64,000 nt of DNA from an uncultured virus (IMG/VR IMGVR_UViG_3300037453_000161) (taxonomy: Duplodnaviria; Heunggongvirae; Uroviricota; Caudoviricetes), in IMG/VR virus record IMGVR_UViG_3300037453_000161; one strand, given 5' to 3'. The notes beneath the pieces were generated by a model. The model worked only from the letters and a program-made list of their open reading frames with translations. It did no database searches and was not told the DNA's origin. The position numbers and the translations under genes are program-made. The stretch's first letter is position 1; each line of letters starts with the position of its first letter. Positions 3,774-40,808 of this stretch are shown here, piece after piece.

Positions 3774-3807
3774 AGTTTCTAATCCTTTACTTAAAAATTA
3801 TTATTGG

Positions 3808-3840
3808 TAGGGACGGGGAGGAACTCAACCGTCCCTACTA
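3808..3840 (-). terminator. Intrinsic terminator-like hairpin
   Basis: GTAGGGACGG...CCGTCCCTAC inverted repeat after the 3856..5259 gene. Confidence 0.5.
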
Positions 3841-3855
3841 TGATTTTACTACTGA

Positions 3856-5259
3856 TTAGGATTCAGTAATTTTAGCAATTTTCTTGCGTACACCATTTTC
3901 GTCAGCGGCGATAGTGAACTGAAGTTCAACAGTCGTCTCGTCAGAACGAGAGATGTTGTTGTTCAAAGTCGTGACGAAGGCATTTTCGTAGTAGTGATAC
4001 TCGATAGTGCCATCTTTCTTGCGAAGAGGAGCAAGAATGTTGACGTTGAAGTCACGGAACTCGTTAGTGACTTCGTAAACTTCAGCAGTAGCCTCTTTAC
4101 GATAGACAATGTTAAGTTCCTGACCAATCCAGTCTTTGCCAACGAGGACAAGACCACGAGTGAAGTCACCCTTGAAGTTTGAGGTGAGAACCTGGAACTT
4201 GTCAGAGTCAGTGACACTCATTACTGGGATTGGGCTGTTGACACGAGTGAGGGAGTGAGCGTTGTTAGCACAACCAGGGGTTTGTACATAAACAAAGCCA
4301 CAGTCTTCAATAGCGTCAGAAAGTTGGATTACACCGTAGCCCTTGAGTTCTTCAGCAAGGTCTTCGTCGATGTAAGCGAAGTAATCTTCAGCGGCAAGAA
4401 CTTCACGAGTTACAATCTTCATAATGCCGAAGGTTTCGTCATCAGATTTGTAAAGAGTTGGGTTCAAGAAGCGAAGGTTCTCGGTGTATTTGTTGGTGGT
4501 GATAGTAGCAGTCATAGTACCGCTCTGTGGGTCGTATTCAGAAGTAGAACAAGCACCTTCGATAACGTCGAATGACTGGCTGTCACCCCAAGTGTCGATA
4601 CAAGAGAGAAGGATGGTGTTGTTGAGTTCGAGGTCTTCGATGCTCTCGTAGAAAGCGATTGAAGAGATACCTGCGAGGTCTCCAGCCTTCAAGTTAGTAC
4701 CGTCAACGGTGAAGCGGAGTTTGACACCGATTTGGTCGATGTTCCAACCGTTGCCAGTAGTGGTCTGTTGTGCGGCAGTTAAGTCGAACTTTGCTAGGTA
4801 GAAGCCTTCTGCGGTAGCGTGAACTTTGGTCGTAACGCTATCGTAGTTGTCCCAAGCAGTTTCGGTGTATTCTGCGATGTCCATAGCAATAGTATGGTCA
4901 CCAGCAGGAAGCCAGAAGTAAGCAACGACAGTACCAGCGACATACTGGAGAGCGTCCATATACTTGTAGAAGTCACCGAAGACTACACTTACGCCATCTT
5001 CTTTAACTTCACCTTGCATAGAACCAGTGTTATAGCATTTGTTCTTTGAACAGCCGATAATGTCATCAGGAACGTTAGCAGCGTTGTAATATGGTGAGTT
5101 GAGGTTTACAAGGTTGTCCTTGTTGTCAACGTTACGGGTGTCTAACTTCGCACAAGATGCGAGGTCATCAAGAACGGAAATCGCAATGATGTCTTCATTT
5201 TTGAGTTTTCCGATTTGGTCGGCTTTGATAACAAAGCCTTTTGAGTCACATTTAGCCAT
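3856..5259 (-). CDS. Probable major tail (tube) protein
   Basis: 467 aa, acidic, beta-rich; C-terminus YYENAFVTTLNNNISRSDETTVELQFTI resembles tail-tube proteins; structural context. Confidence 0.55.
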   Translation of the reverse strand: MAKCDSKGFVIKADQIGKLKNEDIIAISVLDDLASCAKLDTRNVDNKDNLVNLNSPYYNAANVPDDIIGCSKNKCYNTGSMQGEVKEDGVSVVFGDFYKYMDALQYVAGTVVAYFWLPAGDHTIAMDIAEYTETAWDNYDSVTTKVHATAEGFYLAKFDLTAAQQTTTGNGWNIDQIGVKLRFTVDGTNLKAGDLAGISSIAFYESIEDLELNNTILLSCIDTWGDSQSFDVIEGACSTSEYDPQSGTMTATITTNKYTENLRFLNPTLYKSDDETFGIMKIVTREVLAAEDYFAYIDEDLAEELKGYGVIQLSDAIEDCGFVYVQTPGCANNAHSLTRVNSPIPVMSVTDSDKFQVLTSNFKGDFTRGLVLVGKDWIGQELNIVYRKEATAEVYEVTNEFRDFNVNILAPLRKKDGTIEYHYYENAFVTTLNNNISRSDETTVELQFTIAADENGVRKKIAKITES

Positions 5260-5262
5260 AAA

Positions 5263-5493
5263 TTACTCCTTTGCGGCAGCAATGTTAGCAGCAAAGCGGT
5301 CAAAGCCTCTTTGCATTTTAGGTGTCATTTTTCCGAACTTCTCAACGGCTTGCATACGAGTTGCGAGCATACGCTGAAGTCTCTGTTGTTTAGCCTTTTC
5401 GCTCTCCTCGGTAGAAGCAGCAAAGGCTGGAGTAGCGACATTCTGTGCACTTGCTCCATTGGCGGTTTTTTTAGCCATAAGTAATCCTTTCAT
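5263..5493 (-). CDS. Hypothetical basic protein
   Basis: ORF with SD GAAAGGA; likely start at MAKKT. Confidence 0.6.
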   Translation of the reverse strand: MKGLLMAKKTANGASAQNVATPAFAASTEESEKAKQQRLQRMLATRMQAVEKFGKMTPKMQRGFDRFAANIAAAKE

Positions 5494-5589
5494 CTAATCT
5501 TCTGGATTAACGAGGTGTCATCTATTCTAACTATACCATAAAAAAACAAAAACAATTTTAAGGGGTATAATGGTAAAAAAAGAGGAACT

Positions 5590-7275
5590 ATGACTATTCA
5601 AAATACCCGTGAAGAAATCCAAAAGCACGAGAATCAAGAATACATCGAAAGCCGTCCAAAGTGGGTGACAGGACGTATTCCTTCTCTCTCGGATTACCGC
5701 AAATTATCAGTAGATAACTTTGAGGAAGCGTTTGCACTCGCTAAACTCGGTCAGCAAGTAACCACAGCCATTTTGCCAACCTACCACGGCAAGCCACTCC
5801 TGCTCACTTTCACCCAAGCCCTCATCATCGGGGCTGCTATTTTGTCTCGTGAACAGGCGGAGAAGATGGGTCTGAACTTCGAGAAGTACCGTTCTGTGCT
5901 TATGGTCTGTCCATCTCGCTATGGTAAGTCATTCTTGAACGCTATTGTCGCAATCATTAAAGCAGGTACAGAAGGCAAGGAAGTCCGTATCGGCGGTGCT
6001 ACAACGCCAAAAGCAGGGATTATTCAGGAAAAGGTCGTTTCTCTCCTTCCAGACACAATTCCAGCCATCCAAAACGGTCTTGTGGTCACGGCGGAAGACG
6101 GCGATGTCAATAAGAAAGTCCAGCGTCTAGCCACTCAAGCAAGCAAGGAAGCCCTCCAATGGCAGAATGGTGGCTCAATTAAGTTGTTCTCCACCAATGA
6201 AGGGCGTAAGAACGCAGATGTCGGTGCAGCAGGTGCTATCGGTATTGGTGGTGATTTCGTGATTCTTGATGAGATTCAGTTGATGACCCCTGTTGGTTTC
6301 CGTACTGCATCACGTTTTATGATGGAAAACCCTAATACCAAGCGTTTCTGTGTCGGCAACCCACAGATTAACGGGCACTTCAAAGACCTCTACGACGACC
6401 CAGACACATTCGTTGTCCATATTAACGATACCACAGCCATCATTGAAGAGCGTATGTCCCGTCACGGCTTTGAATTAACTGGTATTCCGACCTATTCTGA
6501 AGAGTACAGAGCCTTCATTATGTGTGAGTTCCCAGATGAGAACAGTGGCACGAGGTTCTTCCCAACCCTCCCAACGGTCTTTGACGAGGCTAAAATGCCA
6601 AAACCAGTCTCACAACAGTATTTTATGGGTATTGACTCTGCTTACAAGGGTGGAGACAGCCTTCTCGTGACCCTTTTGTCACTTAACAACCTCAAGGACG
6701 GCTCACGCTACGCTGTTGTTGAACAGCAGATTGACCTCAAGGAGAAGTACCCAGAGTGGGATGAAGACACCACAACCAACATTGCACTCGATATTTTGAG
6801 ATTATGGCAGCAAAAAGGCGTTATGGCAGGGGCAATCGACATCGGCTTCGGTATTCACATCTACGAGCGTATTATGCAGTTAGACCCTGATTGCAACCTT
6901 GAGCCTGTCAACTTCGCCCAGAAACCGACAGAATGGCGTGTAGAGAGCGATTATTCGGCTAAAATGGCTTCTAATGCCCGTGCAGAGATGCACCTAGACC
7001 TTCGAGACCTATGTGAGAGCCATCTCGTGTTTATTCGTGATGGTAAGACCTATGACACGCTTTTACGCCAAATGCGTGAAGTTGGCAATGCCACGGACAA
7101 TTTAACGGCTAAAATCCGCATTGAAGCCAAGAAAGACATTAAGAACCGCCTAGGACGCTCTCCAGATAACCTAGACTCGCTTTGTTTGAGTATTAGGGCT
7201 TTAGTGCTGTCTGGTGTCCTTGAAGGGCGTGGAAACGACGCAGAAGCCGATGATTTGATTGTAGAGGTGTTCTAA
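5590..7275 (+). CDS. terL: Terminase large subunit
   Basis: Walker A PSRYGKS, Walker B FVILDE, GNP motif, nuclease GIDSA and LGRSPDNLDS. Confidence 0.92.
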   Translation: MTIQNTREEIQKHENQEYIESRPKWVTGRIPSLSDYRKLSVDNFEEAFALAKLGQQVTTAILPTYHGKPLLLTFTQALIIGAAILSREQAEKMGLNFEKYRSVLMVCPSRYGKSFLNAIVAIIKAGTEGKEVRIGGATTPKAGIIQEKVVSLLPDTIPAIQNGLVVTAEDGDVNKKVQRLATQASKEALQWQNGGSIKLFSTNEGRKNADVGAAGAIGIGGDFVILDEIQLMTPVGFRTASRFMMENPNTKRFCVGNPQINGHFKDLYDDPDTFVVHINDTTAIIEERMSRHGFELTGIPTYSEEYRAFIMCEFPDENSGTRFFPTLPTVFDEAKMPKPVSQQYFMGIDSAYKGGDSLLVTLLSLNNLKDGSRYAVVEQQIDLKEKYPEWDEDTTTNIALDILRLWQQKGVMAGAIDIGFGIHIYERIMQLDPDCNLEPVNFAQKPTEWRVESDYSAKMASNARAEMHLDLRDLCESHLVFIRDGKTYDTLLRQMREVGNATDNLTAKIRIEAKKDIKNRLGRSPDNLDSLCLSIRALVLSGVLEGRGNDAEADDLIVEVF

Positions 7276-7574
7276 TGGGCAAATTGGAGAATCTCAAGCG
7301 TGGTGACAAGTTAGATGCTAATGGGCAGAGCCATAACTGGAATGTTCACAACGGACGCAAATTCGGAAAGCGATATGGTCGGAAAGGCGGAAAGGCTCGC
7401 TGGGCTTCAATGACGCAGGAAGAGAAGGAACTAATTTGGGCAAAACGGGACTATGCGATTGAACAGAACAGTAGGTTAAAGGCTAGGATGTCTAAAATGA
7501 GCCTTACCCCTGCAAAGAACCTTTCAAGGCAGGAAATCGAGGAATACGAAGAGTTCTTTGGCGACATCCTATGA
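7275..7574 (+). CDS. Small basic protein with KGG-like motif
   Basis: GRKFGKRYGRKGGKAR; coupled to terL by TAATG overlap. Confidence 0.6.
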   Translation: MGKLENLKRGDKLDANGQSHNWNVHNGRKFGKRYGRKGGKARWASMTQEEKELIWAKRDYAIEQNSRLKARMSKMSLTPAKNLSRQEIEEYEEFFGDIL

Positions 7575-7583
7575 ACGTGGGTG

Positions 7584-7656
7584 TTGACATTATGTTTCGG
7601 GTATGCTATAATAGGGGTAACGAGAAACACATAAGACACTCGTAGAAAGGGCTTTT
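7584..7656 (+). promoter_or_regulatory. Early-type promoter plus shared leader (only full + strand copy)
   Basis: TTGACA 7584, 17 bp, TATAAT 7607; AAACACATAAGACAC 7625-7639; SD GAAAGG. Confidence 0.9.
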
Positions 7657-7989
7657 ATGCCAACCATTAACAATAAAGATGTGATGCGTGGAACGAAAAT
7701 CACTTGGGAGGAACTCGAAGAGTACCTCTCCAACAACCACGACGGCAAAGGCGTTATCGTCTTTAAGCAAGGCAAGTGGTTCAAAAAGGAGTTCACCGAA
7801 ATTGAACGCTCATACGAGGTTCACGGAAACTGCAAGTGGTTCGATAGCACGAAGTTGGGTAAATCCATCTTCGGTTACTGCCTAGACAACGACCCACAGG
7901 AGCAGGGCGTACGTCTCGACCACTATATGTTCTACCACGACAACCCAGAAGACAACTGGCAAGTTGACTACTGCTACATTGTAGAGTAG
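7657..7989 (+). CDS. Hypothetical protein in a stand-alone cassette
   Basis: 110 aa with own promoter, SD and downstream terminator; SIFGYCLD..GVRLD motif. Confidence 0.8.
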   Translation: MPTINNKDVMRGTKITWEELEEYLSNNHDGKGVIVFKQGKWFKKEFTEIERSYEVHGNCKWFDSTKLGKSIFGYCLDNDPQEQGVRLDHYMFYHDNPEDNWQVDYCYIVE

Positions 7990-8038
7990 AATTGAATTAA
8001 CTCGTATATCTGCCTGGGTAGGTACACGACGAGATTCG

Positions 8039-8070
8039 ACCAAAAAACCCCCATTTCGGGGGCTTTTTGG
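8039..8070. terminator. Bidirectional intrinsic terminator
   Basis: A-run, CCCC-ATTTC-GGGG hairpin, T-run, between convergent genes. Confidence 0.8.
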
Positions 8071-8094
8071 TTTCTAGGTGGTTAGTGTGTCAGA

Positions 8095-9234
8095 CTAGAG
8101 AGCCTTTGGGTAAAGGTAGCCGTTGACACCGCTGTTCACGAAGTTTTCAAGACCACCGAGCGATGCAGAATCGCAGATAGAGTCGAGATGTACGTTCGAG
8201 ACCATTACGAGACCTAACCAGTTAGTCACGACGGTAGTACCAGCGTTGTGCATAGTGATACAGTGACCACCACAGTCATCTTCGCTGTCTTTCGTCTTGA
8301 TGTATGGGTTGTTAAGAGCGTAAAGCATCTTAATACCGACATAGTTAGGGTTGATGAGCCACATAGAAGTAGTGTTAGTGTCGAGGTCAACATCGACGTA
8401 GCGAGACTCGATGATTTCCATACGACCATAAGCCACACCACCGTTGCTGGTCAAACGCCACTTGGTAAGTGGGTCAGTCTTGAGGTAGGTGCGTACTTCT
8501 TGTTCGAGAGTCTTACGAGCAATCGGGTTGATTGCGATGATGTAATTCTCTGCGGACATACCCATAGCAGAAAGGCGGCACTCAAGCATTTCGATTGCAG
8601 CGATGAAGCCAGCAGAACCGTCTACTTGAAGCACACGCTCATCAGCGAGACGGGAAATGAGACCGTTGAATGGACGCATACCCTGACCAGAATAGGTTGG
8701 AGTACCTAAAATGGTGTTACGCTCGAAGATGAAGCGGCTGTAAAGAGCGACATATTTGCGACGAATAGTCGACATAGAGTCGCCAACCTTCTTCCAAGGG
8801 AATTGAGTGTCGTAGTTGTGATGTTTGACAACGTCTTCAAGCATTTCATCAAGAGAGGTTGCAACACAGTCTTTGACACAGAGTTCGTGCAAGTCGAGTT
8901 TGTAACGACAAGCAGTAACGGTAGGAAGACCAACACAACAGCCAGTGCCATCATCATCAAGGTTCTCAAGACCAGAGTCCGAGATTACATATGGAGTTTG
9001 GACATAGTATTTGGTACGACCTGCACCACAGGGGTCAATCAAGATTTCAGCCTGACGAGCCACCGCATTGTTAATGAGGCGAGAAGCAAGTGGGTCTGCA
9101 CCAGCGTTGTTGCTGTTAGCAATAGCCTTGCTCTTGTCATTCTGAATCCCAACTTGGATTGCGTCGATAACGTTAGTCGCAAATTGTGAAGCGGCTTCGT
9201 TCAAATCGACTGGATTCTTACCTTCAAAACGCAT
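8095..9234 (-). CDS. Probable major capsid protein
   Basis: 379 aa directly after protease/scaffold; ERNTILG...PFNGL resembles the HK97-fold spine/P-domain pattern. Confidence 0.7.
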   Translation of the reverse strand: MRFEGKNPVDLNEAASQFATNVIDAIQVGIQNDKSKAIANSNNAGADPLASRLINNAVARQAEILIDPCGAGRTKYYVQTPYVISDSGLENLDDDGTGCCVGLPTVTACRYKLDLHELCVKDCVATSLDEMLEDVVKHHNYDTQFPWKKVGDSMSTIRRKYVALYSRFIFERNTILGTPTYSGQGMRPFNGLISRLADERVLQVDGSAGFIAAIEMLECRLSAMGMSAENYIIAINPIARKTLEQEVRTYLKTDPLTKWRLTSNGGVAYGRMEIIESRYVDVDLDTNTTSMWLINPNYVGIKMLYALNNPYIKTKDSEDDCGGHCITMHNAGTTVVTNWLGLVMVSNVHLDSICDSASLGGLENFVNSGVNGYLYPKAL

Positions 9235-9236
9235 AA

Positions 9237-10454
9237 TTATTCTCCTAATTCGTTAAAGGCTTGTTTGTATGAATCGACAAGGGAGTTCTTCTCTTTGTCG
9301 TCTTCGTCAGGTGTCACATCAGCACCCTCTTCTTCGGTAGGTTCAGAGGCAGATGCAAGGGACAATACGTTTTTCAGTTTTGCCTCAAACGATTCCTCTT
9401 TCTCTTCCTTCGCAGAGAGTTTTGCTTTCAGTTCAGCATTTTCTTCTTTCGCAGCCTTTAATTCGGCTTTGAGAGATTCGACAGCGGCAGCGAGTTGGTC
9501 GACAGTAGATTCACCAGCGTCTTCAGCAGGTTCTTCGGCTTCAGCCTCTTCACCTTCTTCTTCAGCGGCTTCCTCTTCGCCAGCGTCTTCAGTTTCGGCT
9601 TCGCCTTCAACATCTTCACCAGCAGCAGCGTTCTGCTCGACTTCCTCTTCACCTTTGTCTTCTGCTTCGCCAGCAGGTTCAGCGTCCTCAACTTCAGCGT
9701 CTTCGACCTTGGTATCGACCTCTTCGTTCTCGATTTCGCCTTCTGCTTCGAGTTTCTTCTTCTCTTCTTCAGACATAGTGTTCTTTCCTTCCTCTTCACC
9801 AGCACTTGCCTTTTTGAGCAAGTCCTCGTCGTAAGAGTTAGCATTTTTAGGGTTGTCAACCACAGCGTACCCGACCACAGAGAGAGCACTAATCTTTGGG
9901 ATTAAGTACCAATCTGGGAATGAGGTGTCACCCGTGACTACTGATGCTTTGACGTATTCGTCAGCCTCATAGTAGAACTCGGATGAAATCGCTTTGCGGT
10001 TCATTGCGTGAAGTAGGTCTTTGGTTGCATAAAGTTCGTGGTCTAGTTTAACATTGACATCTACCCCGTATCTGTCATCGCCAAGTTCAACCAAGCGAAG
10101 TTCGCTCTTCTTGAACTTACCGAGGTCGATACCAGAGATATGGTCTTTGTTAATGTAGCCCTCGAAGTCTTTAGGTAACTCGTCAAACCACTTCTTAATA
10201 ACGCCTTTCCCGATAACTGCATAAGGAGTAGAGTCACCCTCTACAACTACGCCTTCATCGAGTAAGCGTACCCAGTTCTCTTTCTCTTCAGAGAACTTGT
10301 CAATGGCAAACGTTGCACCGACATTGGCATTTTCAGCCGAAGCGTCGTATTTACAATGTCTGTCCCATTTCTTCTTCAAGGCTTGTCGGTGCATCACATT
10401 CTTACGAATACGACCATCGAGCGTGCCTTTTGGAATCTTGTACTCGTCAAACAT
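9237..10454 (-). CDS. Prohead protease/scaffold fusion
   Basis: N-terminal INKDH...ISSEF...VVDNPKNANS protease-like motifs; very acidic coiled-coil C-terminus. Confidence 0.7.
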   Translation of the reverse strand: MFDEYKIPKGTLDGRIRKNVMHRQALKKKWDRHCKYDASAENANVGATFAIDKFSEEKENWVRLLDEGVVVEGDSTPYAVIGKGVIKKWFDELPKDFEGYINKDHISGIDLGKFKKSELRLVELGDDRYGVDVNVKLDHELYATKDLLHAMNRKAISSEFYYEADEYVKASVVTGDTSFPDWYLIPKISALSVVGYAVVDNPKNANSYDEDLLKKASAGEEEGKNTMSEEEKKKLEAEGEIENEEVDTKVEDAEVEDAEPAGEAEDKGEEEVEQNAAAGEDVEGEAETEDAGEEEAAEEEGEEAEAEEPAEDAGESTVDQLAAAVESLKAELKAAKEENAELKAKLSAKEEKEESFEAKLKNVLSLASASEPTEEEGADVTPDEDDKEKNSLVDSYKQAFNELGE

Positions 10455-10457
10455 AGT

Positions 10458-10769
10458 TTATTCCTCGATTACCTTGAAAGGGTTAAAAATGACTTTCGGT
10501 TTCGCTGATGGGCAAGTTCCACATTTCGTGATTTCGTACTTGATACCTCTACTGTCTAACTCTGCTTTGAGTTCAGGGGTGGACAGCATCTTCTCCCGTA
10601 CATCACCAATCGTACCCTTGATGTAGTCAATGAAGACTGGGTCTTTGGTCTCGTACTGTGTATCAGGTAGGAAAGTCAATCTCTTGGAGGTGTAACCACC
10701 TTTTTCACGGGTGACCATAACCATCCTGTCGATTGCTCCAGCCATAAAATCGTGTAATGCGAAAATCAT
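10458..10769 (-). CDS. Hypothetical protein (CxxC)
   Basis: ORF in head operon with SD AGGAG; KCGTCP. Confidence 0.7.
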   Translation of the reverse strand: MIFALHDFMAGAIDRMVMVTREKGGYTSKRLTFLPDTQYETKDPVFIDYIKGTIGDVREKMLSTPELKAELDSRGIKYEITKCGTCPSAKPKVIFNPFKVIEE

Positions 10770-10772
10770 AGC

Positions 10773-10949
10773 CTATCTCCTATCAAGTTTGTCCTTGAAC
10801 AGATTGCGAATGTACTGTTGATAGTCATTGCCAGTTGTTGATTTGACGGCTGCTGCCATCTCGTCAGCATTAACTACCTTAATAGCCTTCTTTGCAGGGG
10901 CTTTTGGGGCGGTTTTACTGGTCTTTGGTGTCTTGTTCCTCTTTGCCAT
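10773..10949 (-). CDS. Small basic protein (58 aa)
   Basis: MAKRNKTPK... read by hand, SD AAGGAG, fills the operon gap. Confidence 0.6.
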   Translation of the reverse strand: MAKRNKTPKTSKTAPKAPAKKAIKVVNADEMAAAVKSTTGNDYQQYIRNLFKDKLDRR

Positions 10950-10960
10950 AGGAGACTCCT

Positions 10961-11272
10961 TTAAGACTGTGATTTGCTTTCTTCGCCTTCACAGTTTGGA
11001 AGGGCATCCTCGCAAGGGGTGTTTGCTGCTTCTTCAGCAAGTTGTTCTACCTTGGCGACAAGACAGAAACCACAGGAAGCACTACCAATGTCGTAGTATT
11101 CCTCATCGCCGTCGTTTGCTCCAGGGAACTTAACGTAACGAGCGTTGTTGTCTAACTTCTTGACGATTTCGTTGATTTTACCACCGACACCCATTTCGGT
11201 AATCACTTTGGTAGTACCATCAGTCAAGGTTAGGGTCAATTTCTTGCCGTACTTTCGGTTTTTAGTAGACAT
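10961..11272 (-). CDS. Hypothetical virion-associated protein
   Basis: ORF with SD GAAAGG, first gene of head operon. Confidence 0.7.
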   Translation of the reverse strand: MSTKNRKYGKKLTLTLTDGTTKVITEMGVGGKINEIVKKLDNNARYVKFPGANDGDEEYYDIGSASCGFCLVAKVEQLAEEAANTPCEDALPNCEGEESKSQS

Positions 11273-11355
11273 AAGTTAAACCTTTCCGTTTGATTAGGTC
11301 TAATTGTCATAAGACATAGGTGTCATCTAGGTAAATAATACCATAGATTTAAGAA

Positions 11356-11784
11356 TTATTTTTTCTGGTCGGAGTTGAACTCTACCCAGAAATTGTAATC
11401 CTTATCACGCTTCGTTGAACAGAACCGCTTGATATTGCGACCAGTGTCCCAGACACTCGTCTTAATCTCAAGTGTACCGTCCTCGTTATAGTGTGAACGA
11501 ATTAAATATGAGGTACGGCATTTACCACACTCGATAATCTCGGTCTGGTCGCCTGTACCTTTCCCAATGATAGTCTTAACAACGGAATTACACTTGCAAA
11601 TCTCATTGGGACGCTTTGCATAGAGAGATTGACACTTGAACTGGAGAGCAGGAACAGTTCTTCCGTCCATAGGGAACTTGTAATCGACAATCTTTGGAAG
11701 GTCAATCTTGAAGATGTTTTCTTGAGTGTCCTTTGCCACCTCTTCAGATAACACAGGAACTTCGTGTTCTTTAGGCGATGTCAT
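11356..11784 (-). CDS. Hypothetical Zn-ribbon protein
   Basis: C..C / CGKC motifs. Confidence 0.65.
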   Translation of the reverse strand: MTSPKEHEVPVLSEEVAKDTQENIFKIDLPKIVDYKFPMDGRTVPALQFKCQSLYAKRPNEICKCNSVVKTIIGKGTGDQTEIIECGKCRTSYLIRSHYNEDGTLEIKTSVWDTGRNIKRFCSTKRDKDYNFWVEFNSDQKK

Positions 11785-12382
11785 TTAACTTATCTCCTGC
11801 AATGTTAGAGGTAAGGTCAGATTCACGGATTTTAGACATAAGGGAAAGGACATCATAAGGGTTGAGGATGTTTCTCATCTCGTATGCTTGTTTATCAGAC
11901 ACGAGTTCTGCACCAACATAGTCCCAGTTCTTGCCATTCTTGCGGAAGCGGTAAGCCTTAACTGATTTAGGGATTTCAGTCATATGTTGAATACCATTAA
12001 CGATGGCGTGACCGAGTACGACAACAATGTCTAGGCTATCTACAACCTCTTTTCCTGGTTTGCCGTCCTTGCCTTCTTCGACGTGCGTCTTCTTGTCAAC
12101 AAGGTAACGATTGGCAGTGTAAATGTTGATGTCGAGCATAGCAGCCTTGTTACGGTTAATCTTGCGAAGATTACCAGTAACCTTGTCAAACTCGATAGCA
12201 CCTGGCTTTGGGTCACCGTGAAGATAACCGTCATTACCTTCTAGCAAGCCCATTGCACGTTGTTCTGCCATTTTTTTGTTGTATTCCTCTGGCGTATAGA
12301 CGTTTGCCATACCAGGGATGTTCTTGGCGTTCTTGGAGTCGTCCAAGATACTTGCCAAAACTTCGGCTTTAATTGTAGCCAT
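11771..12382 (-). CDS. Hypothetical protein
   Basis: 203 aa, SD AGGAGG. Confidence 0.75.
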   Translation of the reverse strand: MATIKAEVLASILDDSKNAKNIPGMANVYTPEEYNKKMAEQRAMGLLEGNDGYLHGDPKPGAIEFDKVTGNLRKINRNKAAMLDINIYTANRYLVDKKTHVEEGKDGKPGKEVVDSLDIVVVLGHAIVNGIQHMTEIPKSVKAYRFRKNGKNWDYVGAELVSDKQAYEMRNILNPYDVLSLMSKIRESDLTSNIAGDKLNDIA

Positions 12383-12462
12383 AGTTCCTCCTTTGAGTAT
12401 TAGTAGTCATAACTTAACAATAACACAAAAACGCAGATGTTTTTTTAAGGTAGTAAACAACG

Positions 12463-12692
12463 AAAAGACCCCCGAGTGTGAGCATAGGAGGTCTTTTCGC
12501 TAATTGCGGCTACTGACCAATTCTAAATAAGAATGATGTTAAAGAATTAGCATCGGAAACACATAAGACAACTCACAATAAGAACTTATGAAAGGATTTA
12601 TTGCAAGAAAGAGTTACCACTGGAAGGTAATAACTCATAATCCTGGTCAGTAGTATTATTTGTCGAGGTACAATCCTAGGATTAGAATCACT
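12463..12692 (-). ncRNA. Putative structured small RNA (~230 nt) antisense to the shared early leader
   Basis: Minus-strand TTGACA(12725-12720)-17-TACAAT promoter; 10-bp closing stem 12510-12519/12644-12653; terminator 12463-12499; no credible minus-strand ORF. Confidence 0.65.
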
Positions 12693-12728
12693 TATAATTG
12701 TATTACAAATAGGGTCAAATGTCAAGGT

Positions 12729-13010
12729 TTACTTGTAAGTACAGATTTTGTAGATTGGGAAGAACACCCAGCATACTAAACATAACCAAGGTGTTACTGT
12801 CAATACGAACGTCCATAAGCCTCCGAATACGAGATTATACAGAGGTTCACACAACCAGCATAGCATTGTCAACATAATTGCTAGACCCCACATTAAGAAT
12901 GGGAGCATAATAACTTCACCTGTGATGCCAAGAGCAGGGCTTCTGGTAATAGTTACAGAGCCGTCTGGGCGTTTCTCTCTTTGATAATTTGTTCTACCAT
13001 AATGATACAT
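12729..13010 (-). CDS. Small membrane protein
   Basis: Two hydrophobic segments; own TTGACATTTAGA promoter near 13070. Confidence 0.7.
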   Translation of the reverse strand: MYHYGRTNYQREKRPDGSVTITRSPALGITGEVIMLPFLMWGLAIMLTMLCWLCEPLYNLVFGGLWTFVLTVTPWLCLVCWVFFPIYKICTYK

Positions 13011-13943
13011 AGTTTTATTCCTTTCCAGTGGTTATTGTAATTACATTGTATCACAGATGATTCTAAATGTCAAGCCTTTTTCTGGAGAAAGTGTGCCATA
13101 TTTTTTTTCGGGGTTTTAGACGGACGAAAGGCGAATTAGTTTTGGGTCAAGCATAAGTAGGTTGTAGGAGGTCAGTGGGGAGAGAACGCCGTAATCCGCT
13201 CTCTCCGTGCGGATTCCCGCCGATTAGTTCCACGATTCCGCCCGCCTGTCAATTCGTCAATTCGCCACGCTTCGCCCCTGTTTTTGTCTTTGTTATGTCG
13301 TAAAATGTATATTGTGCGACACTTCCCGCCCCTGTTATGGCTTCGGGCTTCACGGATTCCGAACGCTTCGGGCGGTTTTTGTTCGGTTTTTGATTCGGGC
13401 GTTTTATGTCATAATATGCGACGATTTGCGACGATTTGCGGGGATTCCGTCGCCTTTTTGCCATTTTTTGCGGATTTCGCAAGGGCGGGCGGGCTTCGGA
13501 TTCCCGAACGGGCGGGCGGTTCGGCGGGCTTATAATATAACGGCGGATTTTTTGCCTTTTTCACCCCCCGCCCCTGTCTTATCATAACGAGTATTAAAAA
13601 CACAACCGCCGACGACTTCGGCGGGGATTCGCCACGCTATAACACGCCGTGTGGCTTCATATAACGCCATTTGCGGGGCTTCTAGGGCTTCGGGCGTATC
13701 TTTTCCCTATTTCAAACTTAACACGCCTTAAAACGCCTTAAAATGGCTTAAAAATTAACAGGGCTTAAACTTTCGGGGCTTCCCGTCAATCTTCCCCCGA
13801 TTCTTCCCGCTTCAATCTTCACGGCTTCGGGATTCTTTCGGATTCAATCAACAGACAAAAAAACACGGGCGGGGCTTTCTTCTTTCCCTTTCCCGTGTCT
13901 TTCTTCGGTCTTTCTTTTTTGTGGTCTTTTTTTGTGGCTTCGT

Positions 13944-14255
13944 CTATTGTGCGGGCTTCGCCACGACTTCCACGCCATAAGGGCTAAAATCGCCCCCGCC
14001 GTTGTGTATCTCTAAAACTTCCCAATCACAACCGCCATTTTTGCCCGCTTTCCAATCCGTCAAACATTGTGCCATTTCGTCGGCGTGTTTCTGTTTCAGA
14101 TGTTCCACGATTTCGGCTTTTGTGTTCGCTTCGTTTATAGACAACACAACCGCCACGACAACCGCCACGCTTGCGACAATCCAACCGACGACACCCGCCA
14201 AGCGTTCCGCCTGTTTCTTTCTTTGTCTTTCATAATAACTTTGATATTTTGCCAT
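13944..14255 (-). CDS. Membrane-anchored hypothetical protein
   Basis: One TM segment; SD GAAAGG. Confidence 0.7.
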   Translation of the reverse strand: MAKYQSYYERQRKKQAERLAGVVGWIVASVAVVVAVVLSINEANTKAEIVEHLKQKHADEMAQCLTDWKAGKNGGCDWEVLEIHNGGGDFSPYGVEVVAKPAQ

Positions 14256-14316
14256 TTTTTCGCCTTTCTTTTCTTATGATTCGGGGCGGGCGGATTCCCG
14301 CCCGCTTCCCTTTGTC

Positions 14317-14658
14317 TTATTTCTTAAAAAAATCATTGAAAAAGTCGTCGCTTGCCGTGTGTGCTTCCCATTTTTCGCCGTATTCGTCCATAAAATCGCC
14401 AACCTTTAACGCTTCACGGATTCGGCGGGCGTTCCAATCACCCCCGACATTTTCCGCCAAAAACTTACAAACGGCTTTCATTGTGGTTTTTGAATAGTCC
14501 CAGTCGTCGCCAAAATCTAGCGTGTGCGTGTCCCAGTCAATAAGCACAACCTTTGAATTATAACTTTGTAGGATTTGCGTGTTCAATTCGTCAAAACTTG
14601 CGACGATTTGATTTGCCCAAGCGTTCCCGTTGTGGTTCGTCATTTGATATAATTTCAT
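14317..14658 (-). CDS. Early hypothetical protein
   Basis: LQSYNS...WDYSKTT motif recalled from phage early genes. Confidence 0.75.
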   Translation of the reverse strand: MKLYQMTNHNGNAWANQIVASFDELNTQILQSYNSKVVLIDWDTHTLDFGDDWDYSKTTMKAVCKFLAENVGGDWNARRIREALKVGDFMDEYGEKWEAHTASDDFFNDFFKK

Positions 14659-15211
14659 TTTGTGATTCCCTTTCGCCTTTTCGGCTTACTTTGTTATATT
14701 GTGGCGGGATTCGCCCCCGCTTTTTTCGCTTCCGCCTTGATTCTTTATTATTTGCGGGCGTTGGGGGCTTTTCCCTTGCGTTGGTCTTATGTGTTCCAAC
14801 TGTCTCTATTGTATCACGGCGGGCTTTTTTTGTCAATACACCGCCAACAGGGGCGAGCGTGATTTTCTTTTGTATTTTTTGCGGATTTTGTGGCGGATTC
14901 GGGCGGATTCGCCACGCTTCACGGATTCCCGCCAATCGTCGCCAATCCGTGCGGGATTCGTGCGGATTCAACACAAAAACACCCGCCACGATTCAACACG
15001 GGCGGGCGGTTCGGTTCGGATTCGTGCGGGGCTTCGTGATTCCGCCATAATATCGCAAGCGGGCGGGCGTTCGGGATTCGCAAGCATAAGACACAACACG
15101 GCGGGCGGGATTCCCGCCAATCGTTCCCGATTCGTTCCGCTTGCGGTATTATAGCACAATCACGGCGGGCGGGATTCGTTCGGATTCAATCCCGCCACGC
15201 TTCGCCAATCT

Positions 15212-15421
15212 TTACAGGTTCAACAGGTCGCCGACGATTTCCGAAAATATGCGTTGTGCGGGCGTGTGGTCGCCGAAAATGTGCGGGATTTCTTCCCGAT
15301 TCGCCACGCTTATATTATTCAAAATCCACGCCATTATATCGTCAAGGTATGCGGGGCTTATACCTGTTTCAATCTGTAAATCGTTTTTCAATTCACGGAT
15401 TCTTTCGTCTTTGCTTTTCAT
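15212..15421 (-). CDS. Early hypothetical protein
   Basis: SD GAAAGG before MKSKDE. Confidence 0.65.
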   Translation of the reverse strand: MKSKDERIRELKNDLQIETGISPAYLDDIMAWILNNISVANREEIPHIFGDHTPAQRIFSEIVGDLLNL

Positions 15422-15470
15422 ATAATCAACCTTTCTTTTCATTATAGGGGCGGGATTCCGCCCCTTTGTC

Positions 15471-15719
15471 TTATATTTCCACGCTATTTGCGATTTCGTC
15501 GGGTCTTTGATATTCCCAGTCTAAAACATAATTGTCGCAAGCGTATAATTCGGGCGTGTATTCAATCACTAAAACTTCTTTGCCGTCGCCTGTATAATCC
15601 ATATCAACAAAACGGCGGATTCGGTCGCCGTCTAGTTGTCTAAAATAGACGGATTCCACGCAATAGAGTGATTTCACAACCTTTGTGATTCTTTCTTTTT
15701 GCTCTTTGATATAATCCAT
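15471..15719 (-). CDS. Early hypothetical protein
   Basis: Start MDYIKE follows promoter/leader unit; the longer ORF-track start runs through the promoter. Confidence 0.75.
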   Translation of the reverse strand: MDYIKEQKERITKVVKSLYCVESVYFRQLDGDRIRRFVDMDYTGDGKEVLVIEYTPELYACDNYVLDWEYQRPDEIANSVEI

Positions 15720-15886
15720 TTTTTCCCTTTTCCGAAAGTGTCTTATGCGTTTCTTTCTGTCTCTATTATAGCACGGCGGATTCGCTTTGTCAATACTATT
15801 TTTGAAAGTTTTTGAAAGTTTTTGAAAGTTTTTCAATTTGAAAGTTTTTCGGATTCGGGCGGGCGGATTCCCGCCCGAAAGTTTTT

Positions 15887-16432
15887 CTATTTCCAGACGA
15901 TTTCTTCGTGCGTGTGTATAATCCCGTCGTCGTCCAGTTCGTATTCGCCCATATAGTCAAGGGCGGATTCAATTTCGGATTCAATCAAGTCGTCCGTTAT
16001 ATCTTCTTCGGCGTGTAGCATATCTTCAATCGCCTGTAAAACTTTTTTCGCCGTCTCTTCCAATTCGTCGTATATTTTGTCGCCTTTGTCGCCGTATAAG
16101 TCGTCGGATTCAAGATTCCAGTATTCGTCCGCAAGTTTTAACATCTTTTCATAAACAGGGCGGTCGGATTCGCTAAAATAATCACCGATTCCGTCGTTCA
16201 ATCCCTTTACAAACTCTTCTGCGTCCGTCAATCTATAATAAAAACTATTATAGTTGTCATAATATCTAAATCCCCTTTCACGCCCCTTTTCAACAAAAAT
16301 TGTCGCAAGCGTGTCATTTTGCCAAAATGATAGAGTATCATAACAGCGTTCGTTTATGGCGTTTTGAAAATCCCGATTTGCTTCGTAAAGATTCTTCAAT
16401 TCGTCTTTCGTCATTTCGTTTAACTTTTTCAT
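15887..16432 (-). CDS. Acidic early protein
   Basis: 181 aa, D/E-rich, own promoter unit. Confidence 0.8.
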   Translation of the reverse strand: MKKLNEMTKDELKNLYEANRDFQNAINERCYDTLSFWQNDTLATIFVEKGRERGFRYYDNYNSFYYRLTDAEEFVKGLNDGIGDYFSESDRPVYEKMLKLADEYWNLESDDLYGDKGDKIYDELEETAKKVLQAIEDMLHAEEDITDDLIESEIESALDYMGEYELDDDGIIHTHEEIVWK

Positions 16433-16595
16433 ATATTCCCTTTCAGAAAGTGTCTTATGTGTTGCTTTCTGTCTCTATTGTATCACAACAGAAAGTTTTT
16501 GTCAATACTTTTTTCAAAGTTTTTTCATAGACAGGGATTCGGCGGGATTCGGGATTCCCGCCCGTGCGGTCATATACACGGGCGGATTCGGGATT

Positions 16596-17234
16596 CTATT
16601 TCTTCAAAGTTTCTCTAAAATCGTCAAGCGTGTCATATTCCACGCCGTTTATTTCAATCGTCGTTCCGCCGTCAATCACCGCCATATCTATTGTCTCAAT
16701 CATATCGCCAATATACCCGTCGTCAATATACCCGTTTTTGTCTATAATCAAACTTTTCAAAAACTCGGTCAATTCTTCGGTCGTGTCAAACGGATTTTTC
16801 GTGATTTCCATTTCATAATCGTCGGTCGTATAATTATATTCGCTTGGTGCGAAAATACTTATAACACGGGCTTCAAAGGGATTTCCCGCCGATTTTGCGG
16901 ATTCCATCAACCAGTTCAAAGACGCTTCCGCCATAACTTCTAAAACATAAACAAAGTCAAAGTGGCTTATAAACTCTTCAATCTTCACCCCTGTTTCACG
17001 CTCTAACTCTTCGCCGTCATAATTGTCTCGGTCATAAGTCAATTCGGTCAAGTCAAACTGCCCATAAGTATCAACCAATCCGCCGTGTATATCTTTACTC
17101 AAAATAATATGGCTTCGGTCAATCTTATCATAATCTTTACAGCGTCGGTCAATATATCTTTCTTGGATTCCGTCCGCCGTCAAAGTGCCTTTTGCTCTAT
17201 TTTCAAACTTTAAGTAGTCGTCAAAGTTTTTCAT
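16596..17234 (-). CDS. Acidic early protein
   Basis: 212 aa, D/E-rich, own promoter unit. Confidence 0.8.
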   Translation of the reverse strand: MKNFDDYLKFENRAKGTLTADGIQERYIDRRCKDYDKIDRSHIILSKDIHGGLVDTYGQFDLTELTYDRDNYDGEELERETGVKIEEFISHFDFVYVLEVMAEASLNWLMESAKSAGNPFEARVISIFAPSEYNYTTDDYEMEITKNPFDTTEELTEFLKSLIIDKNGYIDDGYIGDMIETIDMAVIDGGTTIEINGVEYDTLDDFRETLKK

Positions 17235-17312
17235 TTTATTATACCTTTCAGAAAGTGTCTTATGCGTTTCTTTCTGTCTCTATTATAGCACGCCGAAAGT
17301 TTTTTGTCAATA

Positions 17313-17534
17313 CTATTTTGAAAGTTTTTCAAGTCCGTTGTATAATTTCGCAATAGCATCACTTCGCAATTCAAAACAGATTCCGTCGTCGGGGTCGCCA
17401 TTTTCCATATAGTTATAAGCGTATTCGTATAAGTCCGTCCAAAAGTTTTTGCCGATTCGCTTCTTATATTCGTCTATAAATAAATCCCACGACGATTCTA
17501 GGGCGGTAGTCGCCCAATCGCCTTTATTTTCCAT
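17313..17534 (-). CDS. Early hypothetical protein
   Basis: Coupled to the upstream gene by TAATG. Confidence 0.7.
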   Translation of the reverse strand: MENKGDWATTALESSWDLFIDEYKKRIGKNFWTDLYEYAYNYMENGDPDDGICFELRSDAIAKLYNGLEKLSK

Positions 17535-17899
17535 TACTCTTCCCCCAATTCGTTTTTAAGGTCGTCAATCAAGTATTTCAACAGGTCAATCAACTCATAG
17601 TCGCAAGATTTCCCGTTGCCATACCCGTCAAGATATGCGTAGTTGGCGTTATTGTCTATATCTTCAAGTAGGATTTTCACGCCAATCCAACCCCGTTGGT
17701 CAAGATTCCATTTCACTAAATCTTCCCACTCGTCAGATTCAAGGTCATAAATCGTGTCGTCGGGATTATGTTCATAGTTGTATTCGTTCAACAGATATAC
17801 TGCTTCGGATTTCCAATCGTCCGCATATTCCCTGTATTTGTCGGCTTCAATCTCTTTAAGTAGGGATTCCGCCTTTTTCTTCATTTCTTCATAATCCAT
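17534..17899 (-). CDS. Acidic early protein
   Basis: 121 aa, YLDGYGN motif, own promoter unit. Confidence 0.8.
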   Translation of the reverse strand: MDYEEMKKKAESLLKEIEADKYREYADDWKSEAVYLLNEYNYEHNPDDTIYDLESDEWEDLVKWNLDQRGWIGVKILLEDIDNNANYAYLDGYGNGKSCDYELIDLLKYLIDDLKNELGEE

Positions 17900-18173
17900 T
17901 TTTTGCCTTTCAGAAAGTGTCTTATGTGTTGCTTTCTGTCTCTATTGTATCATACCGAAAGTTTTTTGTCAATACTATTTTCAAAGTTTTTTCAAAATTG
18001 AATCGGTGTCTCTATAAACTTATCTTCACAGAATCGGTGATTTTCCCCCGTTGCTATCTGTATATTTTTTTCCCGTTCGTCCATATATCGCATAACCATT
18101 ATAAAGTGCGTTATATCACCAATCCGCTCTTCAAAGTTTTTGCCGATTTTTGCCCACCTGCTTCGTCTCATAG

Positions 18174-18464
18174 TTATTTCGCTTCCCTAAACACGCTTAT
18201 AATGATATTACTCGGCGACATAGCACACTCACTCAAAGTGTATAATTCGGCTTTGTCGCAAGATTCAACCATTTTGATATATTCGTATAAATCGCCAATT
18301 ACAGGTTCGGTCTCGTCTTCCCACTCTAACCCGTCCGCTAGATACTGCTCAAAAGTCTCTTTAAGACAATATCGCAAGTATTTTGCTATATCTTCCGCCT
18401 TGCCTAGTATTCTTTCGTCGGTCAAGCGTATAAGATTATATTTCTTCATATCTTCGTCTAACAT
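18174..18464 (-). CDS. Acidic early protein
   Basis: SD AAGGAG before MLDEDM. Confidence 0.7.
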   Translation of the reverse strand: MLDEDMKKYNLIRLTDERILGKAEDIAKYLRYCLKETFEQYLADGLEWEDETEPVIGDLYEYIKMVESCDKAELYTLSECAMSPSNIIISVFREAK

Positions 18465-18477
18465 CTTATCTCCTTTT

Positions 18478-18765
18478 CTACCAATCGTGATTTTGCCACA
18501 TATCAGGTTGGTGGTCTTCATAAATCTGTTTTAATACTTCGTCGGCGTTGCTATGTTCGCCGTCGTCGCATACATTATAATAGACAACATTGTGGCTTGT
18601 GCCGTCTTCGTTGTATTCAATTACTCTATACCAAAGTAGGATTTCGGCTTCGTCTTCTAAAACTTCGCCACCGCTACACCAACTGCCGTCGCTTGCGACA
18701 TAGTGCGTTTCAATCGGGGCTTTGATTCGCCCTTCTTCTACTTCAAAGTATTTCATTTCTTCCAT
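18478..18765 (-). CDS. Acidic early protein
   Basis: Own promoter unit. Confidence 0.75.
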   Translation of the reverse strand: MEEMKYFEVEEGRIKAPIETHYVASDGSWCSGGEVLEDEAEILLWYRVIEYNEDGTSHNVVYYNVCDDGEHSNADEVLKQIYEDHQPDMWQNHDW

Positions 18766-18891
18766 TATTATTCCTTTTCCGAAAGTGTCTTATGTGTTGC
18801 TTTCTACCCCTATTCTATCACAACCAAAAGTTTTTGTCAATACTATTTTGAAAGTTTTTTCAAAAAAGTGGCGGATTCGCTCCGCCACCCC

Positions 18892-19647
18892 TTAAAACTT
18901 TTTCAATTCCATATGCCCCGACAACTCTTCCAAAATCTCTTCTTTCGTTGCTATAAACTCATAATTCTCGGATTCATAAAATAGTCTATATTCGTCTTCG
19001 CCCAATCGGGTTAATTGTATCATTTCACTTTTGTCATAGTCGTCGTGTTTCAGTTCGTGTTCTTCGTTCAATTCTAAATAATCCATTATTGAATCTCCTT
19101 TTCTACGATATATGCGACGCTTTCAATATATTGTGCGTCCTCATAGACAACAGAATCATATTCCCAATCAGCACGGCTTGTGCCTGTTAATTCTTCCATA
19201 TACTTTTCTGCGTCCGCTTTTTTTCTATACACCCAACAATCCGTATCTTGTCCGACGGTCTGCGTGCTTACAACCACATATACTTTCATTTTAACAATAC
19301 CTTTCTTTTAACATTTCTTTATCTACGCTCAACCCTGCTTCTTCACGACTTCGGATTTCTGCTTCTATGTTCAACTTCTTGGCTTCTTCCGCCATTTCGC
19401 TATAACATTGTTGGGCTTCTGCTAGATTATAAAAATCAACACAAGTATCTTGAAACATAGCGTCTTGGTCGGTATCTTCGTCGTCAGTGTCAATCATACC
19501 GACACGATAGTATTCGTTCCAATACCCGCCGTCGTCTTCGTTGCCGAATCTTGCGTCTTTGTTCAACACAATATCAGGCTCGTTCGGGTCAATCTCAAAC
19601 TCTTCCGACTTGTAGATTTTTTCCCTTAACATCATTACTCTTTTCAT
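18892..19647 (-). CDS. Three small acidic early genes (19291..19647, 19086..19289, 18892..19086)
   Basis: Contiguous ORFs with SDs behind one promoter unit. Confidence 0.7.
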
Positions 19648-19737
19648 TATTTTCCTTTCAAGTAGTGTCTTATGTGTTTCTACTTACCCCCATTGTAGCA
19701 CAACCGAAAGTTTTTGTCAATACTTTTTTGAAAGTTT

Positions 19738-19929
19738 TTAATAATACAAAAGTTTTTCTGCGTCTTCTTCCGCTAACAATCCACGCTTCACAATCTCATT
19801 TCCAAGTTTTTCAATCCTATCAAGTTGCTTTTTCTTCCCACGACGGCTTGTATCATAAGCCATATCAAGTTGGGCTTCAACATAAAGAAAGATAAGTGTT
19901 TTGTTATCAAAATCCTTGATTCTGTTCAT
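19738..19929 (-). CDS. Early hypothetical protein
   Basis: SD AAGGAG. Confidence 0.65.
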   Translation of the reverse strand: MNRIKDFDNKTLIFLYVEAQLDMAYDTSRRGKKKQLDRIEKLGNEIVKRGLLAEEDAEKLLYY

Positions 19930-20018
19930 AATGTTATATCTCCTTTTTCAAAATGTTATATCTTCTTAAAACTTTTTTGGATTTTCACCCCTATAAACAG
20001 GGGCGAAAATGTTATATC

Positions 20019-20605: not shown

Positions 20606-20683
20606 AATTTTCCTTTCAAGTAGTGTCTTATGTGTTTCTACTTACCCCCATTGTAGCACAACCAAAAGTTTTTGTCAATACTT

Positions 20684-21605: not shown

Positions 21606-21730
21606 ATTATATTTCCTTTCAGATAGTGTCTTATGTGTTTGCTATCTTACCCCTATTGTAGCACACCGAAAGTATTTTGTCAATACTATTTTCACAAAAA
21701 AATTATGGCGTTTCCGCCATAATTAGAATC

Positions 21731-22360: not shown

Positions 22361-22413
22361 ATTATTATAATATCACATAAAAACACCTGCGGTTTAGAAC
22401 CACAGGTGTTATG

Positions 22414-40804: not shown

Positions 40805-40808
40805 TATT

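Follow-up and report, generated by a model that had tools for sequence, protein, structure and literature searches.

The closest described systems are the c4 RNAs of phages P1 and P7 and the CI RNA of P4, structured trans-acting phage antisense RNAs that pair with two short leader sites, one of which lies at or near the ribosome-binding site (RBS). Both c4 and P4 CI act on a single operon, through sites located next to their own gene, and they serve the immunity of temperate elements, maturing from a longer precursor. A set of early messages can also be lowered after transcription by proteins, as in phage T4, where RegA is a translational repressor of many early messages and RegB is a nuclease that cuts early messages at GGAG. 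Here we describe a locus in the IMG/VR record IMGVR_UViG_3300037453_000161, analysed as a stretch of 64,000 nucleotides (nt; hereafter the window) that makes up most of a ~65-kb contig of an uncultured and apparently virulent gut phage. The locus, 12725-12460 on the minus strand, may be an independent small-RNA (sRNA) gene, and we give an even chance to the reading that its product acts in trans as an antisense RNA against the early regulon of the phage, which it would recognize through a hairpin-loop address. The sequence arrangement that underlies this reading is real and statistically solid.

Other phage RNAs have been reported to act by pairing. P22 sar, lambda OOP and lambda aQ are antisense RNAs that lower the translation or stability of a phage message, and these three, together with VpdS, PreS, 24B_1 and PAK_P4as15, are directed at host genes or at individual phage genes, according to a 2025 review (PMC12197685), which also treats lambda 6S as an Hfq-bound sRNA of unknown function. 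StxS is a short PR'-tR' transcript reported to act in trans by base pairing (Sy et al. 2020). Within the portions of this literature that were available, no phage RNA was found that acts in trans, by way of one standard tag, on many messages with promoters of their own.

The tag in question corresponds to the 15-mer of positions 12556-12570. Twelve copies of it, counted at up to 2 mismatches, occur in the window, as compared with a mean of 0.20 in shuffled sequences, none of which (0/100) reached 12. Ten of these copies follow, at a distance of 11-12 nt, consensus promoters that carry a TG extension and are nearly identical to each other (class A; plus strand, 7584; minus strand, 14836 to 21683), and they stand 5-6 nt before a GAAAGG block followed by the start codon. 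In these ten separately promoted early leaders, which are spread over 21 kb, the motif forms the loop of a 5' hairpin. The motif is exact at 7624-7638 (plus strand, stem ACGAG/CUCGU, leading gene 7657-7989) and, on the minus strand, at 19666-19680 and 20624-20638 (stem AAGUAG/CUACUU in both). It carries one mismatch at 15739-15753 (an A>G change that pairs as G-U with the complementary locus), 16451-16465 (stem CAGAAAG/CUUUCUG), 17256-17270, 17918-17932, 18786-18800 and 21627-21641 (stem AGAUAG/CUAUCU), and two mismatches at 14783-14797 (stem GUUGG/CCAAC), all on the minus strand. Two variant leaders, behind promoters 23061 and 28878, hold a partial motif that abuts the Shine-Dalgarno (SD) sequence or the start codon; in the second of them, which is transcribed from a promoter of a different class (class B, see below), the motif is degenerate, with 2 mismatches, and fused to the SD at 28822-28836 (minus strand). 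The original prediction had spoken of about ten leaders, and this number can now be given as exactly ten hairpin leaders plus two variants; that the leader is a 5' hairpin had been missed.

The arms of the hairpin differ between leaders (AGAAAG/CUUUCU, AAGUAG/CUACUU, AGAUAG/CUAUCU, ACGAG/CUCGU and GUUGG/CCAAC), and in an alignment of the ten leaders four of the seven stem pairs change on both sides, while the loop does not co-vary. Of the 70 stem cells, 80% are paired (shuffles, 66.1 ± 3.2), and the stem has a covariation score of 0.460 (shuffles, 0.229); in either case 0 of 500 shuffles reached the observed value. A one-base offset of one leader in the alignment makes this pairing count conservative, and in controls in which the register was slid at most 47.1% of the cells were paired. 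A more distant relative, found in run X7, retains the core of the loop on a different stem, GCUAG/CUAGC, which represents a fifth or sixth version. A loop that is held fixed on a stem that needs only to pair is the hallmark of loop recognition by a sequence-specific partner. The proposed targets encode orphan small proteins.

The same early units show further sequence regularities. The class A promoters (14836-23061 on the minus strand and 7584 on the plus strand) contain AAAACTTTC upstream of the -35 element and in the spacer, and tandem GAAAGTTTTT repeats occur at 15799-15892; a factor that shuts off transcription, alongside any RNA control, might use these elements as its operator. In addition, contigs of three runs (X2, X3, X8) join position 16463 to 17280 via 13 other letters, which points to close relatives without one early cassette (16464-17279), or with the cassette swapped by recombination between leader and promoter repeats. 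Early cassettes seem to be shuffled at their common promoter-leader blocks.

The complement of the leader loop lies in the minus-strand locus. Read on the plus strand, the identity of 12556-12570 with the leaders ends exactly at the borders of the loop and is accompanied neither by stem arms nor by a class A promoter, so that in sequence terms this segment is a mirror of the leader loop only. The unit that contains it starts with a sigma-70-type promoter at 12697-12725 (minus strand; AAACC-TTGACATTT ... TACAAT), which agrees with the consensus at 11 of 12 positions, has the form TTGACA-17-TACAAT and lacks a TG extension. The promoter had been recognized in the original prediction, with a coordinate (12698) that was off by one. 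Its -35 element begins 3 nt past the stop codon (12729) of a neighbouring gene for a 93-amino-acid (aa) protein. It is one of eight TTGACATTT promoters (class B), the others of which drive replication and recombination operons and the neighbouring 93-aa gene, and it has a 14-nt block, AAACCTTGACATTT, in common with promoters 25882, 28878 and 32174.

With its 5' end placed from the -10 hexamer, the predicted RNA is ~230 nt long (12691-12460), and a -10-like TCTAAT is found a few bases past this start. As had been claimed, the segment contains no credible open reading frame (ORF). The only minus-strand ORF of at least 25 aa inside the unit (12573-12725, TTG start, 50 aa) begins in the -35 hexamer and is therefore located upstream of any transcription start. 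Two 21-codon frames were also considered and judged unlikely, one on the minus strand (12640-12575) with an AGGA merely 2 nt before its AUG, and one on the plus strand, from 12589, without an SD. The unit ends in an intrinsic terminator (12460-12500, minus strand) at the boundary between early and structural genes, the arms of which (12461-12473 and 12487-12499) are 92% complementary. Its fold reaches -23.2 kcal/mol on the minus strand versus -18.7 kcal/mol on the plus strand, in line with the earlier observation that the stem pairs fully only on the former. At the level of sequence, the locus thus has the attributes of an sRNA gene: a promoter of its own, an intrinsic terminator and no ORF. 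It also includes a perfect 12-bp palindrome, AATCCTAGGATT (12672-12683), unique in the window and spanning roughly +9 to +20 of the expected transcript; a dimeric regulator of the promoter might bind it as an operator, or it may simply belong to the 5' hairpin.

The predicted RNA folds with an energy of -68.1 kcal/mol (z score -5.77), and none of 200 shuffles was equally stable. In the predicted order of elements, a 5' terminal stem-loop (12672-12689), which overlaps palindrome AATCCTAGGATT, is followed by a core domain (12510-12653; z scores of -5.45 and -6.66 for the minus and plus strands, respectively), whose closing element is the perfect stem of 10 bp (12653-12644 with 12519-12510) that had been noticed before. 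Next come hairpin H1 (12611-12636), with a CU-rich CUUCCA loop, hairpin H2 (12572-12607), a 17-nt unpaired junction, two small hairpins and the terminator. The junction holds the seed, 12556-12570, an exact complement of the 15-nt loop motif. Each of its bases is predicted to be unpaired with a probability of 0.64-0.98, and opening all 15 of them costs 0.84 kcal/mol, which makes it the fifth most open of 217 windows; the seed is hence not buried in a stem, the outcome that the original prediction had named as fatal to the idea. Eighteen nt upstream of the seed, at the apex of H2, lies an anti-Shine-Dalgarno (anti-SD) octamer, UCCUUUCA (12596-12589), with an opening energy of 2.27 kcal/mol. Both the 15-nt complement and the octamer, at this distance and in the order that matches the targets, are present in the sequence as they had been described. 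On the plus strand, TGAAAGGA at 12589 is the sole copy in 64 kb, versus nine copies on the minus strand, most of them at RBSs.

Pairing energies were computed in short windows, because unrestricted duplex prediction over-extended the pairings, and included the opening cost of both partners. The net energy between seed and loop ranged from -8.5 to -14.8 kcal/mol and was favourable for all 11 of the 11 motif-bearing leaders, with a contribution of the anti-SD octamer between +1.1 and -5.4 kcal/mol. The prediction therefore contains what is looked for in a base-pairing sRNA, an accessible seed with a favourable net energy to its targets. In an orientation control on 77 start regions, the best match in the opposite orientation was 13 of 18, and in the antisense orientation 10 of the 77 regions reached at least 15. 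These features, together with the co-variation of the hairpins, the accessibility predicted for the seed and the energies, were read directly from the DNA or calculated from it.

A third module of the RNA appears to face the neighbouring gene. Bases 12633-12616 of H1 match the 5' untranslated region (UTR) and SD of the 93-aa gene (13015-13032, minus strand, behind promoter 13073-13045) at 16 of 18 nt (89%). The protein has two hydrophobic stretches, consistent with two transmembrane (TM) segments, and yielded no family match in domain scans and none in the protein atlas. A match of at least 16 of 18 at the start of this gene arose in 1 of 1000 dinucleotide shuffles, which is moderate evidence, since the match was noticed after the fact. 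On sequence grounds the contact could form in trans, with the gene as a second target, or join the 5' and 3' parts of a single message that reads through from promoter 13073, which is conceivable because no terminator separates the 93-aa gene from the RNA unit. Trans-encoded type I toxin-antitoxin systems such as tisB/istR-1 and zorO/orzO place an sRNA beside the gene for a small hydrophobic protein, with ~18-21 nt of complementarity to its 5' UTR, and the H1 match to the SD region of the adjacent two-TM gene may correspond to such an arrangement. Unlike the typical type I arrangement, however, the protein is longer, and the RNA lies downstream in tandem and carries further modules.

Only one other antisense-oriented copy of the motif exists in the window. 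This second mirror copy, 12 nt and exact, is located at 25688-25699 (minus strand) in an ORF-less 5' leader of ~235 nt behind class B promoter 25882, and we assign it lower confidence. Ten of its 12 bases are predicted to be unpaired with a probability of at least 0.57, at an opening energy of 3.93 kcal/mol. The leader (25611-25847, minus strand) folds at -77.3 kcal/mol (z score -2.70), includes a long nested hairpin and has no match in Rfam. The TTG annotated as its start codon, at 25729, is probably incorrect, to judge from an ATG at 25611 that is preceded by an AGGAGA SD.

From these observations we infer that the unit is transcribed, on the minus strand, and that its RNA pairs with the leaders in the cell and represses them. 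Host RNA polymerase would start at the class B promoter and stop at the boundary terminator, releasing a folded RNA of ~230 nt. Its 17-nt single-stranded junction would expose a sequence exactly complementary to the loop (13-15 nt) of the ten class A 5' hairpins, and the apex of the adjoining hairpin would display the complement of the SD block of the same messages. Pairing between loop and seed, followed by pairing at the SD, would block ribosome entry, and it would probably also open the message to double-strand-specific or 5'-end-dependent decay. A single RNA could in this way lower the whole early regulon post-transcriptionally, while H1, as a third module, might cover the RBS of the adjacent membrane protein gene. 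The targets encode small orphan proteins, as opposed to the DnaD-like loader, DnaB-like helicase, primase, PNK and RecE-like exonuclease encoded under class B promoters, which fits a hand-over from take-over genes to replication. More tentatively, the whole may form an RNA-only temporal switch, an RNA counterpart of T4 RegA and RegB, in which the class A messages, once the replication module is being transcribed, are masked at their RBSs and cleared through mirror copies of their hairpin address made from class B promoters (the RNA at 12.5 kb and the leader at 25.7 kb) and in which the membrane protein is also gated.

In its layout, this putative RNA resembles c4 and P4 CI in that its seed and anti-SD octamer match two leader sites, the loop and the SD, in matching order. 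The two elements are 18 nt apart in the RNA versus 5-6 nt in the targets. In contrast to the single operon controlled by c4 and P4 CI, the address recurs here on 10-12 separately promoted units over 21 kb, as the loop of a co-varying 5' hairpin. Also unlike those temperate elements, the window revealed no integrase or repressor family among the proteins scanned, and no match to the Rfam C4 family was obtained up to E = 10. The comparison with lambda 6S and StxS rests on a strong promoter, ~200 ORF-less nt and a terminator just before late genes; here, however, the protein scans turned up nothing of Q type, the late operon has a promoter candidate of its own, and the predicted targets are early messages of the phage itself, whereas StxS addresses rpoS and stx1. 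As with RegA and RegB of T4, one phage product would lower a set of early messages post-transcriptionally at their ribosome-binding regions, but those are proteins that read loose motifs, whereas an RNA would here read an exact, private 15-nt tag. Finally, sar, OOP and aQ are cis-encoded and fully complementary to a single target, in contrast to the trans-encoded RNA with a short seed and many targets proposed here.

Several observations weigh against this proposal. The fold of the RNA body is strand-symmetric (-44.9 kcal/mol on the minus strand and -44.5 kcal/mol on the plus strand); an asymmetry was sought in this fold and not found, and as a consequence the strand is chosen only by the promoter, the terminator and the orientation statistics. 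The minus-strand antisense interpretation put forward originally is supported in part, by the promoter class, the terminator, the open seed, the energies and the two additional complementarities (H1 and the copy at 25.7 kb), and receives no help from the strand-neutral body. The promoter lacks the TG extension present in the other 11 class A and class B consensus promoters in the 7-23 kb region (both strands), and as a host-type consensus promoter it would yield RNA as soon as infection begins, unless class B is a delayed class. A single RNA gene would also have to oppose ten strong target promoters. Hairpin H1 is followed by UUUCUUG and is terminator-like, and a stop at that point would leave an RNA of ~85 nt without the seed. 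With respect to the additional contacts, a 16 of 18 match to any of the 77 start regions arose in 48 of 1000 shuffles, for a similarity that was noticed post hoc, and a 12-mer with at most one mismatch, such as the copy at 25.7 kb, is expected 0.48 times by chance.

Among the alternatives, the one that retains most plausibility, though we consider it unlikely, is that the stretch is mainly the 3' UTR of the 93-aa message together with the boundary terminator, with H1 folding back on the RBS of its own message, a promoter that is weak or incidental and a 15-mer that is a leftover. With no terminator between the stop of the 93-aa gene and position 12500, transcripts from promoter 13073 should read through, as this explanation expects, and the 16 of 18 complementarity is to the 93-aa gene itself. 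It nevertheless leaves unexplained the exact, loop-confined 15-mer and the anti-SD block, as well as the 14 nt that the promoter has in common with three class B promoters; moreover, a long transcript would still show an exposed seed.

Almost as probable as this would be a real pairing with a different outcome, whereby the RNA activates or stabilizes the early messages or triggers their processing, or the leaders act as a sponge that keeps the RNA from acting elsewhere, for example on the 93-aa gene or on a message of the host. The seed site precedes the start codons by ~19-33 nt, which places it at the margin of the ribosome footprint, the anti-SD octamer contributes little to the energies, and the RNA promoter looks constitutive, all of which would suit such an outcome. 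The ordered anti-SD octamer and the unique plus-strand TGAAAGGA, on the other hand, are hard to explain unless the SD is targeted, and in the two variant leaders the seed match lies right at the SD or start codon.

It is improbable, in our view, that no functional RNA is made and that the segment is either a site for a DNA-level regulator, which would also bind the early promoters at +12 to +26, or a decaying inverted copy of a leader. In favour of this, the fold is strand-symmetric, the motif of the early units could double as an operator, and a dense field of repeats begins 400 nt away. Against it, the co-varying stems show the early motif acting as an RNA loop, the region is kept in contigs of three further runs from three studies, and both promoter and terminator are intact. 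Neutral loss would also not spare 15 of 15 loop bases while removing the stem arms and the promoter.

A further candidate, to which we give a still slimmer chance, is a unit like lambda PR'-tR', in which a short, terminated leader is made constitutively and later antitermination extends it into the structural operon, any sRNA role being secondary, as for StxS. Its attraction is that the unit abuts the structural operon and that a second such unit precedes gene 39730, which has the same leader. The expected layout is indeed present, with a promoter, a short ORF-less stretch and an intrinsic terminator directly before late genes, and the -10-like TCTAAT lies just past the presumed start. The second unit (39497-39730, plus strand) repeats this arrangement, with a class B promoter (39497-39525) right behind the stop of a portal-like gene, ~130 ORF-less nt, a terminator at ~39623-39662, a AAAAGTCAA...TACAAT promoter and gene 39730. 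The leader of this gene, TATGACTACTAAT..AAGGAGGAACTATG, is identical to that of the 203-aa gene located behind the terminator of the RNA unit. The second unit folds with a z score of -2.06, and no notable complementarity was found for it. Short PR' transcripts can be sRNAs, as StxS indicates (Sy et al. 2020), and because such by-products can have this function, the PR'-tR' and antisense interpretations are not exclusive.

What speaks against a PR'-tR' unit is, in part, the protein complement. No Q-like or other antiterminator family was recognized in the Pfam and PHROG scans of 16, 42 and 35 proteins, in which sigma factor, integrase and repressor families were also absent; most early proteins matched nothing in these scans, so that a novel antiterminator may have escaped them. 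Structural genes are further distributed over several operons on both strands, and the structural operon next to the RNA unit has a late-type promoter candidate behind the terminator and before the 203-aa gene (12403-12424, minus strand; TGtTATTGT ... ATGACTAC). The pattern of this candidate, TGnTAnnnT ... ATGAC, precedes four structural-module genes in all (39693 on the plus strand and 12422, 11340 and 5535 on the minus strand). Neither complementarity of the RNA is explained by a PR'-tR' unit. The least probable explanation, and a very improbable one, is a plus-strand transcript whose sense motif, predicted to be unpaired on that strand too, serves as a decoy for a factor that binds leader loops: no plus-strand promoter better than 9/12 lies upstream of 12556-12570 (those listed start at 12614 and 12660, past the motif), the genes on either side are encoded on the minus strand, and the terminator folds less well as plus-strand RNA.

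As a separate observation, an extended -10 element followed by ATGAC(T/A)(A/C)C is found at the four sites just named (5535, 11340 and 12422 on the minus strand and 39693 on the plus strand), and CTAAAAGTCAA occurs ~8-9 nt before the -10 element at three sites (35805, 37415 and 39677, plus strand) that precede structural-module genes. By their sequence and position, both patterns are candidates for late promoters that require a phage factor.

The runs in which the locus occurs (n = 19, all DNA contigs) derive from bovine or other animal gut or faeces metagenomes, and contigs of the three further runs mentioned above cover it at roughly 91-98% identity. Among the differences listed, the only change in 12383-12728 is 12604 C>T, in contigs of three runs, which converts a G-U pair of H2 into A-U and counts in favour of the antisense proposal; as a further point against it, the same change would pair in plus-strand RNA as well. 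Contigs of up to 62.7 kb encode homologues of the 203-aa protein that are 76-85% identical to it. Contig ends of run X7 that matched at 12376/12411 were found not to derive from this locus and were traced instead to the 39.7-kb locus of the relative, where the shared leader recurs; the parts of the RNA locus that the high-depth X7 contig leaves uncovered were given no weight. In the phage collection, blastn with the locus and tblastn with the terminase and the 405-aa and 181-aa proteins returned no relatives. Among viral contigs, the 203-aa and 181-aa proteins were without a relative, and the 405-aa protein had a single match, on contig L122 (71% identity), which stops before the 203-aa gene and has no copy of the motif. 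In a distant relative (37% identity) on metagenome contig L123, the gene lies directly behind other structural genes, with no comparable unit. Matches in viral contigs to the 14-mer, 17-mer and 18-mer patterns were dismissed as chance hits in unrelated DNA, and the 20-base leader pattern had none (0 matches) in that collection; genome contigs gave 0 relatives and 0 pattern matches. An Rfam search had been proposed as a test of novelty: in a scan of the whole window no family matched the RNA unit at gathering score, and six weak matches up to E = 10 in 12350-12800 included none to C4.

The RNA unit, 12725-12460, lies where the early region meets a structural operon (12382-8095), which follows directly downstream, with the 203-aa gene first behind the terminator. 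Structural and packaging genes, including those for terminase, portal and virion proteins, occupy 3-12382 and 37444-64000, whereas replication and recombination genes lie at ~23-35.7 kb and encode a DnaD-like loader, a DnaB-like helicase, a primase, a helicase, a PNK and a RecE-like exonuclease. Small orphan genes, encoded on the minus strand, take up ~13-23 kb. In the interval from the 93-aa gene to the first early units, positions 13100-15900 are filled with dense degenerate repeats (GGATTCCCGCC, CGGATTCG, CGACGATTTG and similar), comprising 58 direct-repeat families and 28 inverted pairs, with a higher G+C content and few credible ORFs; this field could be an origin or a protein-binding array. 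Two adjacent tRNA genes are located at 40731-40880 on the plus strand (Rfam tRNA, 55.2 and 61.9 bits).

Known early shut-off after transcription involves proteins, such as T4 RegA and RegB, and cis-antisense transcripts. If the proposed antisense function is correct, the RNA described here would resemble T4 RegA and RegB in its outcome, and it would account for the invariant loop and the drifting stem of the early hairpin. With one seed, one tag and ten targets, it would provide a compact and testable model of regulon-wide RNA control, as well as a portable pair of address and key for synthetic gene control. It would also supply a search rule for uncultured phages, in which a mirror of the commonest leader motif, placed in an ORF-less unit with a promoter and a terminator, would point to regulators of this kind.

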